Notes under the pieces: generated by a model
The model's database searches: none
Told to the model about the DNA's origin: nothing
Seen by the model: the letters and a program-made list of their open reading frames with translations, nothing else
From: Actinomycetes bacterium
GTDB taxonomy: Bacteria; Actinomycetota; Acidimicrobiia; Acidimicrobiales; Bog-793
Assembly: GCA_021797795.1 (NCBI GenBank)
Contig: JAJZZB010000003.1
Coordinates: 13,659 to 77,658 of the forward strand
Length of the DNA stretch: 64,000 nt
Direction: 5' to 3'
In this document: in pieces, positions 1 to 14,981 of the stretch
How positions within the stretch are numbered: the first letter of the stretch is position 1
How the letters are laid out: every line of letters starts with the position of its first letter
Position numbers and translations under genes: made by a program

Positions 1-1273
1 GAGAGCGAGTCTTGGCCGCCGCCAGGACGGCGTCCACACGACTCGGCGTGGGGTCCAGGTGGTGTTCGTGCAGCCAGTAGACGACGTTCGACTTGCCGCT
101 CATCGGCCCGATGGAGATCTCCTGGCTCCTCCCGACGAGCGATGCCGGCACCGCGCTGTAGACACGGTCCGCCAGCCAGGAGTCGCCCTTGGCGTAGGCC
201 TTGGCGACGGCGGCCGCGTGGACGCCCGTGCTCGTGGCGAAGGCGTCTCGGCCGATCACCGGGTAGTTGCGCGGGATCGGGACGCCGGTCATCCTGCTGG
301 CGATCCGGCAGTAGGCGGGCAGGTCCAGCAGGTCGATGTCCTTCCATCCGAGAAGGGCGATGTTGACGAGCACGAGGTCGAGCGCCGTGTTGCCGACGCG
401 CTCGCCGATGCCGAGCGCGCACCCGTGGACGCGCCTCGCTCCGGCCGAGAGGGCGGCGAGGGCGTTCACGACGTCGAGCCCGCGGTCGCGATGGCCGTGC
501 CAGTCGATGGCGGCGTCGGCGAAGCCGTGCGAGGCCAGCTCGCCGGCGACGAACTGGACGATCTGCTGGACCCCCGACGGTGCCGCGTGGCCGACGGTGT
601 CCGAGATGCAGAAGCGGGTGGCGCCCGCCTCGGCGGCGGCGAGGTACATGGTGGCGATGTCCTCGCGGCGCGCCCGCGTGGTGTCCTCGGTGACGAACAT
701 CACCTCGAGACCTGCGCGGACGGCGTAAGAGACGGCCTGCTCGATCGTCCTCGCAAGGCTCGACACGTCCCAGTCCTCGACCAGCTGGCGGATCGGGCTC
801 GACCCGATGAACAGGGCGGCGTCGATCGGCACGCCCGAGCGCTGCTGCGCCTCGGCGATGGGGTCGATGTCGTTGACGTGAGTCCGTCCGGCGCAGTTGG
901 CCCGGAGAGGGAGCCGCTCGTCGGCGATCGTCCGGGCGAGCCCGATGACGTCACGCAAGGCTGCCTCGCTCGCGCCGGCATAGCCGATGTCGGCCGCGTC
1001 GATGCCGACTCGGGGCAGATGGCGGAGAAACTCCTGCTTCTCGGAGAGGGACGGCTGGCGAACCGATGGGCACTGGAGCCCGTCGCGCAGCGTCTCGTCG
1101 TTGAGCTCGATGACCGTCGCCGGTTCGAGCCGGCACAGGCGCGGGGCGATCTCGTTCCAGTCGTAGACGAGGTCGGTCGGCTCCTCGCCGGCCTCCGCCG
1201 CGGGCGGCGTCGTCTGGGACCTGCGACTCGTCGTCCGCCCCGCTCCGTTCGTCCGCTGCTCGCTGCGTGCCAC
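1..1273 (-). CDS. LeuA-like DRE-TIM metallolyase (2-isopropylmalate/citramalate synthase family), 3' end runs off the window
   Basis: Manual translation (not in ORF track): VIELNDETLRDGLQ, VTEDTTRA, SDTVGH, WHGHRDRG (HxH metal site), GIGERVGN, GVHAAA, GPMSGKSN; in-frame GTG at 1273 with a GGAG-like RBS. Confidence 0.85.
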   Translation of the reverse strand, partial: MARSEQRTNGAGRTTSRRSQTTPPAAEAGEEPTDLVYDWNEIAPRLCRLEPATVIELNDETLRDGLQCPSVRQPSLSEKQEFLRHLPRVGIDAADIGYAGASEAALRDVIGLARTIADERLPLRANCAGRTHVNDIDPIAEAQQRSGVPIDAALFIGSSPIRQLVEDWDVSSLARTIEQAVSYAVRAGLEVMFVTEDTTRARREDIATMYLAAAEAGATRFCISDTVGHAAPSGVQQIVQFVAGELASHGFADAAIDWHGHRDRGLDVVNALAALSAGARRVHGCALGIGERVGNTALDLVLVNIALLGWKDIDLLDLPAYCRIASRMTGVPIPRNYPVIGRDAFATSTGVHAAAVAKAYAKGDSWLADRVYSAVPASLVGRSQEISIGPMSGKSNVVYWLHEHHLDPTPSRVDAVLAAAKTRS

Positions 1274-1466
1274 AGGACTCCCTCCCGCTCTCGCCACCTA
1301 CGGGCGGCCCGTGGGGCCCGAGCCCCCGCGTGCACGCCCCTCCTGCCCGCTACAGCCTCCGGCGGGCATGGCAGGCGTGCGTCCAGGGCGCACCCCTGCA
1401 CCGGGATCACCCCTTCTATGCCAGGTACTTTGCTCTACGTACTGTGGCTAGCACTACGTAGTAGCC

Positions 1467-1495
1467 AGAGTACGTTAGACTGTCCGGTCGGTCAA
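1467..1495 (-). promoter_or_regulatory. sigma70/HrdB-type promoter for the leuA-like gene (TTGACC-N17-TACTCT), overlapped by an imperfect palindrome at 1476-1495
   Basis: Reverse complement of ggtcaa (1490-1495) and agagta (1467-1472), 17-nt spacer, in an AT-richer divergent intergenic region. Confidence 0.5.
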
Positions 1496-1516
1496 GTTCT
1501 TTCTTGGGGAGGCGCG

Positions 1517-2773
1517 ATGCCCCGGCGGCGGGAGGCGGAGGACGCCCGGTCAGCGACAAGGCAGGGTGGCGACGAGGCGGCACGGCGGACCCCGGCTGCC
1601 CGCGCCTCGGAGCCGGATCGGAAGAAGGCGGCACGGCCCCACTGGGCGGATCTCTACGCCGAGGTCGTCGGGAGCCGCCTCTGCAGCGGCTGCGGCGCCT
1701 GCGTGGTCACCTGCCCGCGAGGCGTGCTCGGCTATCGGGACACCTCCCCGTTCCAGGACGACGACGGCTCGTCCGCGCACTCCTGCCGTTTCGGTGAGGC
1801 CGGCTGCGACGCCTGCACCCGCGCCTGCCCCCGCTTTCGCGCTGGGCCGACGGGCGTCGACGAGGCGCTCTTCGGCCGGCGCCGCCAGTCGGACGAGGCG
1901 GCCGGCGTCTTCGTCTCCGCTCTCGCGCTGAGAGCGGCTGAGCGGGAATGGCGCGGCCACTCCCAGGACGGGGGCCTCGTCTCGATGCTCCTCGTCTGGG
2001 CCCTCGAGACCGGCCGGATCGACGGAGCCGTCGTCGCAGGGTCCCGCCCGGGGCATCCGCTTCGCGGGGAGCCGGCGATCGCCCGCACACGAGACGAGAT
2101 CCTCGCCGCTGCCGGCTCGCGCTACACCTACGTGCCGAACCTGCTCGCTCTCGCCGCTGCGGCGCCGCAGGAACGCCTTGCCCTCGTGGGCGTCGGATGT
2201 CAGGTGAGCGGCCTTGTGACCGCCCAGCAGGCGCGCCTCAAGCGGTTCCGCTCGGTCGTCTTCCGGATCGGCCTCATGTGCAGCGAAACCTTCTCCGAAG
2301 CCCCGTTCCTCGACGGCCTGCTCGCCGCCAGGCTCGGGCTCGATCTCCACAAGATCGAGAAGGTGAACGTGAAGGGCAGGGTGGTCGTCTCGACCGAGGG
2401 CTCCCACCACGGCCACCTCGCCTCGGGTCCGGTGGCGGGCAGCCGTGCGCGCGTCGGGGGCGACGGCCGGATCGAGATCCCACTCTCCGAGGCGCGCCCC
2501 CTCGCCCGCCTCCAGTGCGCGTCGTGCTCGGACTTCAGCGCCGAATGGTCGGACCTGTCCGCCGGGGGCCTCGGGCTCGACGGGTGGACCGTCGGTCTCG
2601 TCCGCTCGCCGCTCGCCCGGGCCTGGATCGACCTCATGCTCGCCGAAGGGCTGCTCGAAGCGCGCGATCTCGGGCAGTTCCCACAGGCGGAGCGGCTGAT
2701 GCAGCGCCTCGCCGAGGCGCAGCGCGAACGGCCAGGCATCCATAGGCTGCTGCAGCCGGCACAGGGAGGATGA
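1517..2773 (+). CDS. FrhB/FdhB-family (coenzyme F420 hydrogenase/dehydrogenase beta subunit-like) Fe-S flavoprotein with N-terminal ferredoxin-type motifs
   Basis: CSGCGACVVTCP, GCDACTRACP, SQDGGLVS, AAGSRY, VGVGCQ, IGLMCSETF, CASCSDFSAEWSDLSAGG; ATG 1517 after GGGAGG; upstream part of the 59..2773 ORF is antisense to the leuA-like gene. Confidence 0.85.
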   Translation: MPRRREAEDARSATRQGGDEAARRTPAARASEPDRKKAARPHWADLYAEVVGSRLCSGCGACVVTCPRGVLGYRDTSPFQDDDGSSAHSCRFGEAGCDACTRACPRFRAGPTGVDEALFGRRRQSDEAAGVFVSALALRAAEREWRGHSQDGGLVSMLLVWALETGRIDGAVVAGSRPGHPLRGEPAIARTRDEILAAAGSRYTYVPNLLALAAAAPQERLALVGVGCQVSGLVTAQQARLKRFRSVVFRIGLMCSETFSEAPFLDGLLAARLGLDLHKIEKVNVKGRVVVSTEGSHHGHLASGPVAGSRARVGGDGRIEIPLSEARPLARLQCASCSDFSAEWSDLSAGGLGLDGWTVGLVRSPLARAWIDLMLAEGLLEARDLGQFPQAERLMQRLAEAQRERPGIHRLLQPAQGG

Positions 2774-13971: not shown

Positions 13972-14035
13972 GCGCCACACCCCCCGATCTCGGTCGTCAG
14001 CCCTGCCGCTAACGTTCGACAAACCTACGTCGAGC

Positions 14036-14065
14036 AGTCTGCTCCACGTAGTATGTTCTTGTCAA
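14036..14065 (-). promoter_or_regulatory. Promoter TTGACA-N18-CAGACT upstream of the binding-protein gene
   Basis: Reverse complement of tgtcaa (14060-14065) and agtctg (14036-14041). Confidence 0.55.
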
Positions 14066-14156
14066 GGTAAACCATGGGGCTCTGACGGGGGAGGAGAGCG
14101 TCGGCACCCGGTGAGCCTGAGGACAGGAAGTCCTCCCGCCTGCAGCCGGCGGGGCG

Positions 14157-14981
14157 TCACACCTCGGGGCCTGCCGGCGACGGGAGTCCGGCCGAGGGGA
14201 ACCTCGGCGCGCGCCGTTCTCTCAGTGCCGCGACGCCCTCGAGCACGTCGGGGCCCATGAAGCCCAGCATCTCGTAGGCAGCCGACTGATCGAAGAGGGG
14301 ACCGGCCGCCTTCAGCCAGTTGGCGAGGACCTGCCGCGTCATTCGAATGGCGGTCTGCGACCCGTTGGCGAGCACGTCCGCCACTGCCAACGCCTCGTCG
14401 AGGACCTGTGCCGCCGGAACGGCCTTGGTGACGAGACCGATCCGCTCCGCCTCGGCGCCGGTGAGCATCTCGCCGGTGAGCAGGTAGTACCTGGCCTTCG
14501 CCATCCCGCACAGGAGAGGCCAGCACAGGGCCGCGTGGTCGCCGGCGGCGACGCCGAGCTTCACGTGGCCGTCGCCGAGACGGGCGTCCTCGGCACAGAC
14601 CGAGATGTCCGCCAGCAAGGCGACCGCAAGGCCGGCGCCGACGGCCACACCGTTGATGGCGGACACCACCGGCTTGTCGCAGTTCACGAGGTTGTACACG
14701 AGGTCAGTCATCTCCCTCAGCATGCGAAGCACCCGGGCGTGATCGCCGGCGAGGCGCTCCACCATGGCGAGGTCGCCCCCTGCCGAGAAGGCCTTCCCGG
14801 CACCGGTGACGACGGCGACGCGCGTCTCGTCGTCGAGTGAGATGTCGAGCCAGACACGGGAGAGCTCGGCGTGCATCGTCTCGTCAGCAGCGTTGTACTT
14901 CTCCGGGCGGTTGAGCGTGATGAGTGTGACCCCGCCGGGCCGGCGCTCGAAGAGCAGCTGCTCGTAGGAAGAGAATTCCAT
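14157..14981 (-). CDS. Crotonase-superfamily protein (enoyl-CoA hydratase/isomerase fold), non-canonical catalytic residues
   Basis: [62 protein letters not shown]. Confidence 0.9.

Follow-up and report, generated by a model that had tools for sequence, protein, structure and literature searches.

The 4-hydroxybenzoyl-CoA reductase (4-HBCR) of Thauera and Rhodopseudomonas palustris (HcrCAB/HbaBCD) is a molybdenum (Mo) enzyme of three subunits encoded in the order C-A-B, and its extra [4Fe-4S] cluster, held in a loop, reverses electron flow. In toluene and p-cresol degradation, the Bbs enzymes (BbsEF, BbsG, BbsH, BbsCD and BbsAB) carry out benzylsuccinate-type β-oxidation. Mii, which acts with DmdAB and Dml in nicotinate fermentation by Eubacterium barkeri, interconverts 2,3-dimethylmaleate and 3-methylitaconate, and HphA and HtyA condense an arylpyruvate with acetyl-CoA. 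Among proteins of the glutaconate-CoA-transferase fold, IpdAB is the cholesterol ring-C hydrolase and AibAB is the 3-methylglutaconyl-CoA decarboxylase. Here we analysed a stretch of 64,000 nucleotides (hereafter the window; C105:13659–77658, where C105 is source contig JAJZZB010000003.1) from the metagenome-assembled genome (MAG) of an uncultured actinobacterium, obtained from mine-drainage and sediment metagenomes. Positions 1–14981 of the window carry an operon in which genes for an Hcr-like Mo enzyme stand together with genes for a LeuC/LeuD-like hydro-lyase and for a pair of proteins with the CoA-transferase fold, CtA and CtB; a LeuA-like gene lies at the window edge.

These genes are about half of a larger gene set that is widely conserved in uncultured actinobacteria. 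The cluster extends 13.6 kb past window position 1 and then onto another contig, C189. Window positions 1–14981 are most probably the right-hand part of a supercluster of about 45 kb, which covers C105:1–28639 and continues on C189. What is established is which genes are present, the families they belong to, their diagnostic residues and the conservation of their synteny; from these we infer all substrates. We read the supercluster as one for aromatic acids, in which LeuA-, LeuCD- and Mii-like enzymes, Bbs-like enzymes and the Hcr-like enzyme would together convert compounds of the arylpyruvate/arylacetate type to benzoyl-CoA, and we give this overall reading an even chance of being right. The fuller proposal is that two conserved operons form an undescribed route from arylacetates or arylpyruvates (phenylalanine, tyrosine, phenylacetate, 4-hydroxyphenylacetate) to benzoyl-CoA which uses neither oxygenases nor a radical enzyme. 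With its complete pathway and substrate class, this proposal is tentative and we consider it possible rather than probable. The Hcr-like and ring parts would be variants of known systems, and the side-chain route is the candidate new pathway. A literature search on the gene combination and on benzylmalate and phenylitaconate catabolism, in which subscription journals were only partly covered, found no description of such a pathway.

Conserved operons and the candidate side-chain route

The LeuA-like open reading frame (ORF) of the window is the N-terminal domain (residues 60–476) of a 1069-residue LeuA-like~IorA fusion encoded at C105:11746–14955. The C-terminal part of the fusion (residues 465–1048) matches TIGR03336, the alpha subunit of indolepyruvate:ferredoxin oxidoreductase (IOR), with 674.7 bits, above the equivalog cut-off of 650.9. 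A first-pass annotation, made from the sequence alone, had listed a LeuA-like gene here; the domain is present, but it is only the N-terminal part of a fusion that runs past the window edge. The top NCBIfam matches of the LeuA-like domain are isopropylmalate synthase and homocitrate synthase, at 160–190 bits and far under the cut-offs, and there are weak matches to 4-hydroxy-2-oxovalerate aldolase too. The LeuA-like and IorA parts are fused in three close genomes (source, L001 and L075); in 11 other loci they are encoded by two genes that lie side by side.

We searched for synteny with the Mii-like protein as query, extended the loci and read six Acidimicrobiia MAGs in full. In these MAGs (about 50–60% identity), operon 1 has the order leuA-iorA-iorB-OFORalpha-beta-gamma-caiB-ech2-sdr2-leuC-leuD, in which OFOR is a second 2-oxoacid:ferredoxin oxidoreductase, ech2 encodes an enoyl-CoA hydratase (ECH) and sdr2 a short-chain dehydrogenase/reductase (SDR). 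Operon 2 is divergent from operon 1 and has the order DUF35-thiolase-mii-hcrC-hcrA-hcrB. The genes caiB-ech-sdr are contiguous in every lineage examined. An orthologue of leuC (54–59% identity) is present in 13 of 14 genomes, and each time it follows caiB-ech-sdr; in other lineages the conserved operon also includes a LeuD orthologue (51–61% identity). Only close relatives (76–96% identity) have the window operon in full. Because other lineages keep leuCD, hcrCAB and ctAB-sdr1 in separate settings, the window operon is, judging from these gene orders, a lineage-specific reshuffle of three modules. In Gaiellales, leuA, mii, thiolase, DUF35, caiB, ech, sdr and leuCD form a compact unit without hcr. 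This unit (L096 15081–18710; L098 49–3638) is flanked by genes for a 725-residue protein that combines an old yellow enzyme (OYE) part with a FAD/NAD(P) part and is like FadH reductase, for an isocitrate-lyase-family protein, and for GntR and LuxR regulators. Flanking genes of this kind suggest that the Gaiellales pathway is a variant, which would act on another substrate or include one more reduction.

The genes beyond the window start resemble the Bbs set in several respects. A family-III CoA-transferase (CaiB-type), a crotonase, an SDR and an SCP2-type thiolase with a DUF35 protein occur together, and BbsB is the best solved relative of the thiolase. The closeness of thiolase and DUF35 protein to BbsAB is similarity and not equivalence (the thiolase scores 291 bits with the BbsB model, against an equivalog cut-off of 750). 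Unlike the Bbs set, the source cluster has no BbsG-type dehydrogenase and no fumarate-adding enzyme: no gene for an acyl-CoA dehydrogenase (BbsG-type, Acyl-CoA_dh) was found on C105 or C189, and no PFL-like protein, the type of the glycyl-radical fumarate-adding enzymes, was found in the source genome. Fumarate addition (Bss/Hbs) as the supply for the Bbs-like genes was rejected because of this lack of a PFL-like protein. Since all Bbs families except BbsG are present and there is no glycyl-radical enzyme, LeuA, LeuCD and Mii would supply what the Bbs set misses, namely the unsaturated intermediate.

The proposed side-chain route, which we call module A, would begin with the LeuA-like enzyme, which would join an arylpyruvate (4-hydroxyphenylpyruvate or phenylpyruvate) and acetyl-CoA to give 2-(arylmethyl)malate. 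The LeuCD-like hydro-lyase would remove water to give 2-(arylmethyl)maleate, and the Mii-like isomerase would convert this to arylitaconate (benzylidenesuccinate) by a 1,3-proton (allylic) shift. The CaiB-type transferase would form the CoA ester with succinyl-CoA as donor. ECH2, SDR2 and the BbsAB-like thiolase with DUF35 protein would perform the last three steps of benzylsuccinate-type β-oxidation, and the products would be (4-hydroxy)benzoyl-CoA and succinyl-CoA. An acyl-CoA dehydrogenase would not be required, since the double bond is already in place when the substrate enters; arylitaconate corresponds to the BbsG product as a free acid. Of module A, only the LeuA-like domain (2–1297) and LeuCD (7129–9032) fall in the window. 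That IOR is linked to the LeuA-like enzyme speaks for aryl 2-oxoacids as substrates. IOR, the PaaK-like ligase and the second OFOR may convert arylacetate to arylpyruvate by ferredoxin-driven reductive carboxylation (arylacetyl-CoA plus CO2), pulled by the irreversible synthase. We infer this direction of IOR, and it is the most speculative part of the proposal; alternatively, IOR would serve to reduce ferredoxin.

Module A also shares parts with two other systems. As in nicotinate fermentation, a Mii-like isomerase (PDB 3G7K) is paired with a hydro-lyase of the LeuD/DmdB family, and such a pair would interconvert itaconate-, maleate- and malate-type dicarboxylates. The differences are that the reactions proposed here would run the other way, from malate via maleate to itaconate, that a LeuA-type synthase replaces a lyase of the isocitrate-lyase family, and that the cluster has an Hcr-type Mo enzyme. 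None of the annotated cluster genes encodes nicotinate dehydrogenase, enamidase, the B12-dependent methyleneglutarate mutase or Dml, and no search was aimed at them. As in HphABCD/HtyABCD and LeuABCD, condensation of a 2-oxoacid with acetyl-CoA by a LeuA-type enzyme would be followed by a LeuCD-type hydro-lyase, and arylpyruvate is the predicted substrate as for HphA. The source cluster differs in having no LeuB-type dehydrogenase; the exit would be at maleate via the isomerase, and the pathway would be catabolic and not chain-elongating. The top PDB match of the LeuC-like subunit is the isopropylmalate/citramalate isomerase of M. jannaschii (385 bits), and the genome has its housekeeping leuC elsewhere, on contig C65, as a distant paralogue (32–47% identity).

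The Hcr-like molybdenum enzyme and its family

The three genes hcrC, hcrA and hcrB stand in the order C-A-B and encode the subunits of a xanthine-oxidase-family heterotrimer, as read from Pfam domains and gene junctions. In a PDB search, the HcrA-like subunit scored 562 bits with Thauera HcrA (1RM6_A) and 273 bits with the next solved Mo enzyme. Its identity to Thauera HcrA is 41.6%, and that to the Mo-hydroxylase paralogues of the source genome itself is about 35%. With these paralogues as outgroup, a tree placed Thauera HcrA as sister to the whole family to which the subunit belongs. The HcrB-like subunit aligns with 1RM6_B across the whole FAD domain, and Cys122, Cys138, Cys146 and Cys155, the ligands of the [4Fe-4S] cluster in a loop of about 40 residues, are all kept, whereas CO-dehydrogenase flavoproteins align to it in two pieces and skip residues 124–167. 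Among NCBIfam models, Hcr tops the list for the Mo and FAD subunits, and for the [2Fe-2S] subunit pucE (191.4) is narrowly above Hcr (189). All three subunits score under the equivalog cut-offs of TIGR03193, TIGR03194 and TIGR03195 (Table 1). As far as these comparisons go, the enzyme is HcrCAB-like and groups with 4-HBCR, apart from ordinary hydroxylases; it has the unique electron-input cluster of 4-HBCR and is not classed as an equivalog. HcrCAB is by far the closest solved or curated relative of the Mo and FAD subunits, and genes for a ferredoxin and for 2-oxoacid:ferredoxin oxidoreductases are also in the cluster. The ferredoxin of the source cluster differs in being of the 7Fe FdxA type.

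A further difference from Thauera 4-HBCR lies at the active site of the Mo subunit. Throughout the xanthine-oxidase family a Glu is conserved next to Mo. In the source protein this Glu is replaced by Gln, so that the motif reads GAKEVGQG (4485–4511, minus strand), against GAKEASEG in Thauera HcrA and GIGES in CoxL. The motif GAKE[AVC]GQG (extended, GAKE[AVC]GQGPLLP) was present in all 88 homologues that we fetched, which have 53–96% identity. On this residue, the homologues are a distinct and widespread "Gln-type" Hcr-like family. Its members come from Actinomycetota, Rokubacteria, Gemmatimonadota, Planctomycetota and Burkholderiales; these MAG hosts, often with the aerobic Box pathway, are another difference from the HcrCAB systems.

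We fetched 80 loci around Mo-subunit homologues and clustered the neighbouring ORFs. Box genes (BoxB/BoxC) lie within 10 kb in 38 of 86 distinct Hcr-family loci, mostly those of Rokubacteria. In Rokubacteria/Methylomirabilota, hcrCAB (55–63% identity) adjoins genes for BoxB, BoxC, a benzoate-CoA-ligase-like protein, a PaaK-like ligase, an XRE-cupin regulator and RidA. Such loci are found among L010–L064; in L021 (9507–19158), for example, hcrCAB is directly next to boxC, boxB and genes for RidA and benzoate-CoA-ligase-like proteins. Because Box genes and usually a benzoate-CoA-ligase-like gene adjoin, the product of the Hcr family is predicted to be benzoyl-CoA, and we regard this as good contextual evidence. 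The Rokubacterial gene sets suggest a hybrid route, in which reductive dehydroxylation of 4-hydroxybenzoyl-CoA would be followed by oxygen-dependent Box degradation. The source genome also has BoxB (63%), BoxC (60%) and a benzoate-CoA-ligase-family gene (TIGR02262, 542 bits, above the cut-off of 375), all on C189.

In the proposed pathway, the Mo enzyme (3260–7132) and the ferredoxin (11488–11775) form module B, which would convert 4-hydroxybenzoyl-CoA to benzoyl-CoA with electrons from reduced ferredoxin entering via the extra [4Fe-4S] cluster. For a 4-hydroxyphenyl substrate, the product of the thiolase would be the substrate of Hcr, and hcr is co-operonic with the thiolase gene in many genomes. 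This is like p-cresol degradation in Desulfobacula, in that the predicted product 4-hydroxybenzoyl-CoA would pass to Hcr.

Some Rokubacterial hcrCAB loci (L011, L015–L018, L020–L023, L027, L029 and L044) also carry a CoA-transferase-like pair with 35–40% identity to CtAB. Its alpha motif is E[IV]ED[FL][ST] (e.g. IEDFS), and the genes around it encode an aminotransferase, a DAO-type FAD oxidase, a major facilitator superfamily (MFS) transporter and an enolase-superfamily protein. We rejected these pairs as CtAB orthologues because of the different alpha motif, the low identity and the unrelated neighbours; they are probably a different enzyme.

Ring genes and the weighing of explanations

CtAB has the residue signature of IpdAB. 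In CtB the catalytic Glu of CoA-transferases is Ala (VAGG where GctB has VESG), and [AV]GG is kept in the orthologues. In CtA, ECDEAY aligns with EMDEGM of IpdA, in which the position of Glu105 was identified via the E105A entry 6COJ; the equivalent Glu is kept, and LECDE[AG] is kept in CtA orthologues. We rejected CtAB as a true CoA-transferase that activates an aromatic acid because the beta Glu is Ala. The best PDB scores of the beta subunit are GctB 94, AibB 68 and IpdB 58–66 bits (alpha subunit, Table 1). On these residues and scores, CtAB is a pair with the IpdAB signature that belongs to a subfamily of its own. Like IpdAB of M. tuberculosis and Rhodococcus jostii (6CO6/6CON) and AibAB (5MZW), it has the glutaconate-CoA-transferase fold without the beta Glu, and an SDR and crotonases adjoin it, as ipdF and echA20 adjoin ipdAB. 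However, CtA is equidistant from IpdA, AibA and GctA, and CtAB resembles IpdAB no more than it resembles other non-transferase members. No KstR2 or steroid-degradation genes were seen in the cluster, and CtAB is linked to genes for a benzoyl-CoA reductase (BCR)-like enzyme and an Oah-like enzyme.

This link is seen in L112, where bcrCBAD-oah-ctA-ctB-sdr1-tetR is one gene string; ctAB and SDR1 thus travel with ring genes, and SDR1 is found with CtAB, Oah-like and Bcr-like genes in L112, L109 and L121. In the source genome, C189 has the order Oah-like, BcrCBAD-like, ligase, regulator, BoxC and BoxB. The four genes at C189:689–4900, outside the window, have best or near-best matches to BcrC (240), BcrB (208) and BcrA/D (218 and 127–139), against cut-offs of 313–578. 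Orthologues of BcrCBAD-like genes were found in at least a dozen loci of Acidimicrobiia, Actinomycetota and Acidobacteria. A class II (BamB, tungsten) benzoyl-CoA reductase was looked for, and there was no AFOR_N match in the source genome. C189 starts within a 91%-identical copy of the Oah-like gene; C105:1–422 and C189:1–422 overlap by 422 bp as reverse complements. Because of this overlap and because the relative G002:C92 has the same order, with oah-bcrCBAD-ligase contiguous on one contig, the cluster is probably contiguous across the two contigs and the break is probably due to strain heterogeneity.

The benzoyl-CoA clusters of Thauera (bcrCBAD-fdx-dch-had-oah-korAB) and R. palustris (badDEFG-badHIK) are like the source cluster in overall inventory, the latter having candidate genes for a four-subunit BCR-like enzyme, a ferredoxin, an OFOR, an Oah/BadI-like hydrolase, a BadH-like SDR and a benzoate-CoA ligase. 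The source cluster differs from them in that its members are divergent and below equivalog cut-offs, in the extra IpdAB-like pair, in BoxBC in the same genome, in that neither a Zn-dependent Had nor a clear Dch was found among the source cluster genes, and in its hosts, which are uncultured actinobacteria from mine-drainage and sediment samples. The proposed module C consists of CtAB (9802–11468), SDR1, ECH1 and the Oah-like enzyme, plus the BcrCBAD-like proteins, the ligase and BoxBC on neighbouring DNA. Either an ATP-dependent BCR-like reductase or BoxAB would dearomatise benzoyl-CoA. Hydration of the alicyclic CoA ester would be followed by its oxidation by the BadH-like SDR1, and hydrolytic ring opening would fall to the IpdAB-like pair, the Oah-like crotonase or both; how these two share the work is our prediction.

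The first-pass annotation had proposed another order of events, in which an aromatic, heterocyclic or alicyclic acyl-CoA is activated by reduction, its ring is opened hydrolytically, and LeuCD and LeuA process the branched dicarboxylate, in a logic like that of nicotinate fermentation. In the fuller form of this model, activation would be the work of the Mo enzyme and ring opening that of the IpdAB-like pair, and FrhB would give electrons from F420. Several of its observations hold. The C-A-B order and the Hcr match are borne out by the PDB scores and the four Cys ligands, the Mo subunit groups in the tree with HcrA and not with ordinary oxidative hydroxylases, the CoA-transferase-like pair has the IpdAB residues, the SDR has BadH as its top NCBIfam match, and Hcr-like, LeuA-like and LeuCD genes do co-occur across several actinobacterial lineages. 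The source genome couples ctAB-sdr-leuCD-hcrCAB translationally, and the presence of both a Mii-like and a DmdAB-like family recalls nicotinate fermentation, a likeness that had been pointed out and that is right at the family level, although direction and context differ. We nevertheless consider the proposed order very improbable. Elsewhere leuCD sits with caiB-ech-sdr and leuA-iorAB and not with ctAB, hcrCAB sits with thiolase-mii, and ctAB-sdr1 travels with bcr and oah. A LeuA-type synthase is effectively irreversible according to textbook enzymology and is an unlikely lyase for a degradation product. Because LeuA and LeuCD always travel with the Mii-like protein, family-III CoA-transferase, ECH, SDR and BbsAB-like thiolase, the side-chain set is better placed upstream of the Mo enzyme as a peripheral set, and in the best reading LeuCD would act before ring cleavage and not on a ring-opened product. 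It had also been noted that there is no benzoyl-CoA reductase or CoA ligase; this is true of the window and not of the genome, which has BCR-like genes and a ligase on C189. Since the BCR-like, Oah-like, benzoate-CoA ligase and BoxBC genes lie just outside the window, and BCR-like and BoxAB-type genes are thus on hand for ring activation, the Mo enzyme need not be the ring-activating step. FrhB, which had been taken as an added part of the pathway, is not conserved: no homologue was found in any related locus examined, including a 96%-identical relative (L075/L091), which keeps Usp alone. We therefore rejected FrhB, considered as an electron donor, as a core part.

Other explanations keep module A and change its substrate or its direction. 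The same chemistry might act on aliphatic or non-phenolic 2-oxoacids (R-CH2-CO-COOH to R-CO-CoA and succinyl-CoA), such as 2-oxobutyrate, 2-oxoisocaproate or indolepyruvate, with the Gln-type Hcr acting on another substrate. The Gaiellales unit, which stands without hcr near isocitrate lyase and the OYE/FadH-like reductase, favours this, as do the family matches under equivalog cut-offs, the Glu-to-Gln change and the top NCBIfam match of CaiB, succinate-glutarate CoA-transferase. We regard it as unlikely, since LeuA is fused to, or encoded next to, a bona fide alpha subunit of the arylpyruvate enzyme IOR, the PaaK-like ligase is near the phenylacetate-CoA ligase cut-off (571 against 646), hcrCAB is in the operon of the thiolase in many genomes, and Hcr-family genes elsewhere adjoin Box and benzoate-CoA ligase genes. 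A module A that runs in reverse would convert an aryl- or alkyl-itaconate, or a succinate derivative, to a maleate (Mii), hydrate it (LeuCD), cleave it with the LeuA-like protein as a lyase to acetate or acetyl-CoA and a 2-oxoacid, and use IOR to make acyl-CoA and reduced ferredoxin for Hcr or BCR. The LeuA-like domain is closest to Claisen-condensing isopropylmalate and homocitrate synthases and not to lyases, the CoA-transferase/ECH/SDR/thiolase set would be left without a role or would run uphill, and the arylacetyl-CoA product would have no onward route in the cluster. This makes the reverse direction quite improbable in our view, even though Mii and DmdAB are established to run this way in E. 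barkeri, Mii is the top PDB match of the isomerase, a LeuA~IOR fusion would channel the 2-oxoacid into irreversible oxidative decarboxylation, and the DRE-TIM superfamily includes lyases and the domain weakly matches 4-hydroxy-2-oxovalerate aldolase. Finally, LeuA-like and LeuCD-like enzymes without a LeuB-type dehydrogenase resemble Hph/Hty homologation sets, and an SDR is immediately upstream of leuC. The genes might thus serve biosynthetic elongation of 2-oxoacids (homo-amino acids or secondary metabolites) and merely be neighbours of aromatic genes. This is extremely improbable, because no aminotransferase, nonribosomal peptide synthetase or polyketide synthase context was seen, the operons with CoA-transferase, ECH, thiolase, OFORs and Hcr are conserved across orders, and the housekeeping leuC is distant and separate.

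The route from arylpyruvates to benzoyl-CoA is thus the explanation that we prefer, and several points weigh against it. The Hcr, Bcr, Oah, BadH, BbsB and LeuA matches are all below equivalog cut-offs, and the substrates may differ. CaiB, ECH2 and SDR2 have no specific likeness to BbsEF, BbsH and BbsCD. The whole family has Gln at the Mo site, and the chemistry there may differ from that of Thauera 4-HBCR. The Gaiellales unit without hcr implies that the side-chain module can exist without Hcr and does not go with a 4-hydroxyaryl substrate in every case. A cluster with both CtAB and the Oah-like enzyme looks redundant, and no clear equivalent of dienoyl-CoA hydratase (Dch) was identified in the cluster. 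The join between C105 and C189 is a 91%-identical overlap supported by the synteny of a relative and is not assembled sequence.

If the preferred route is correct, phenylacetate- or tyrosine-derived carbon would reach benzoyl-CoA in organisms without the membrane Mo enzyme PadBCD. It would be an alternative to α-oxidation by PadBCD/PadEFGHI in which all side-chain carbon is kept as succinate, and a new case of a pathway built from parts of leucine biosynthesis, nicotinate fermentation and toluene degradation. There would also be a large Gln-type family of 4-HBCR-like enzymes in soil, sediment and mine-drainage bacteria, many of them coupled to the aerobic Box pathway, and reductive dehydroxylation of phenolic CoA esters may then be common beyond the classical anaerobes. 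It would also suggest that uncultured Actinomycetota reduce aromatic rings with BCR-type enzymes; to our knowledge, this phylum is not known for anaerobic aromatic degradation.

Organisation of the window operon and its flanks

Because the G+C content of the region is about 71%, ORFs were called via domain searches (Pfam, NCBIfam). All genes listed in the first-pass annotation were recovered at about the same positions (Table 1), as was the coupled run on the minus strand. Read directly from the junctions, fdx-ctA-ctB-sdr1-leuC-leuD-hcrC-hcrA-hcrB is a tightly coupled operon (3260–11775). Start and stop codons overlap as GTGA at four junctions, CtA/CtB, LeuC/LeuD, LeuD/HcrC and HcrC/HcrA, and the GTG start of CtB lies inside the overlap with the CtA stop codon. 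The gap is 2 nt at CtB/SDR1, possibly 2 nt at SDR1/LeuC, and 19 nt at fdx/CtA; the HcrA and HcrB ORFs overlap.

Table 1. Features of the cluster: window coordinates where a position range is given; genes beyond window position 1 are placed on contig C105
Feature	Position	Strand	Basis
ECH1, crotonase-family enoyl-CoA hydratase/isomerase	14157–14981	−	Pfam ECH_1 164 bits; NF005595 390 > cut-off 292
Liv-type solute-binding protein, Peripla_BP_6	12727–14022	−	Pfam Peripla_BP_6 186 bits; no permease genes adjacent
TetR-family regulator	11958–12644	−	Pfam TetR_N and TetR_C_6
Probable promoter/TetR operator, intergenic, AT-richer, 182 nt	11776–11957	.	Tandem 15-nt repeats, palindromes; function predicted
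fdx, 7Fe FdxA-type ferredoxin, first gene of the operon	11488–11775	−	Pfam Fer4 families; NCBIfam FdxA_Actino 111 < cut-off 125
CtA, CoA-transferase-fold alpha	10593–11468	−	PDB matches AibA 121, IpdA 118, GctA 90 bits
CtB, CoA-transferase-fold beta, IpdB/AibB-like	9802–10596	−	GctB alignment; transferase Glu lost
SDR1, BadH-like	9035–9799	−	Top NCBIfam TIGR03206 BadH 275 bits, cut-off 431
LeuC-like large subunit	7647–9032	−	NF001614 515 > cut-off 385; ATG at 8951 a possible true start
LeuD/DmdB-family small subunit, aconitase-type hydro-lyase	7129–7650	−	TIGR02087 151 > cut-off 109
HcrC-like 2x[2Fe-2S] subunit	6641–7132	−	Pfam Fer2 and Fer2_2; TIGR03193 189 < cut-off 258
HcrA-like molybdopterin subunit, Gln type	4269–6644	−	1RM6_A 562 bits; TIGR03194 784 < cut-off 995
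HcrB-like FAD subunit with [4Fe-4S] insertion loop	3260–4303	−	1RM6_B 195 bits; TIGR03195 299 < cut-off 405
Usp, overlaps FrhB stop codon	2770–3195	+	Pfam Usp 83 bits
FrhB/FdhB-family protein, N-terminal 2x[4Fe-4S]	1517–2773	+	Pfam FrhB_FdhB_N/C and Fer4; NCBIfam FrhB 156 bits, below cut-off
LeuA/homocitrate-synthase-like HMGL domain, cut by window edge	2–1297	−	Pfam HMGL-like 147 bits
IorB, next gene after the fusion, same strand	C105	−	IOR beta top match, 182 vs cut-off 237; extra 2x[4Fe-4S] tail
Second OFOR, three subunits	C105	−	Alpha 508 > cut-off 411
CaiB-type (family-III) CoA-transferase	C105	−	Top NCBIfam succinate-glutarate CoA-transferase
ECH2 and SDR2	C105	−	Best matches generic
DUF35 protein	C105	−	Sole NCBIfam match BbsA, 48.7 bits
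SCP2-type thiolase, BbsB-like	C105	−	PDB 7PXP_C BbsB 274 bits vs 235 next; NCBIfam BbsB 291 vs cut-off 750
PrpF-family isomerase, Mii-like	C105	−	PDB 3G7K (3-methylitaconate isomerase) 259 bits vs <=186 other PrpF-family
PaaK-like ligase	C105	−	571 bits vs phenylacetate-CoA ligase cut-off 646
Oah/BadI/MenB-like crotonase, truncated at contig end	C105	−	Family match

The intergenic region upstream of fdx contains two tandem 15-nt direct repeats at 11789–11818, TCTCCCGTCGATCAA / TCTACCGTCAATCAA on the plus strand, and also ATCTACA motifs and short palindromes. These elements are probable TetR operators together with the operon promoter. TetR is kept in L002, L005, L006, L008 and L112, the Peripla_BP_6 binding protein in L002, L005 and L008, and Usp beside hcrB in L002, L005 and L075. 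The genes frhB and usp are translationally coupled and convergent with the minus-strand operon, and in the source genome they sit between hcrB and leuA~iorA.

In three metatranscriptomes of the same study, the only matches to the cluster were chance matches of 30–50 nt plus one 554-nt contig. This contig (run X16, depth about 47) is about 92% identical to the binding-protein gene at 12846–13399 and is probably from a relative that, as it seems, expresses its binding-protein orthologue well in the same habitat.

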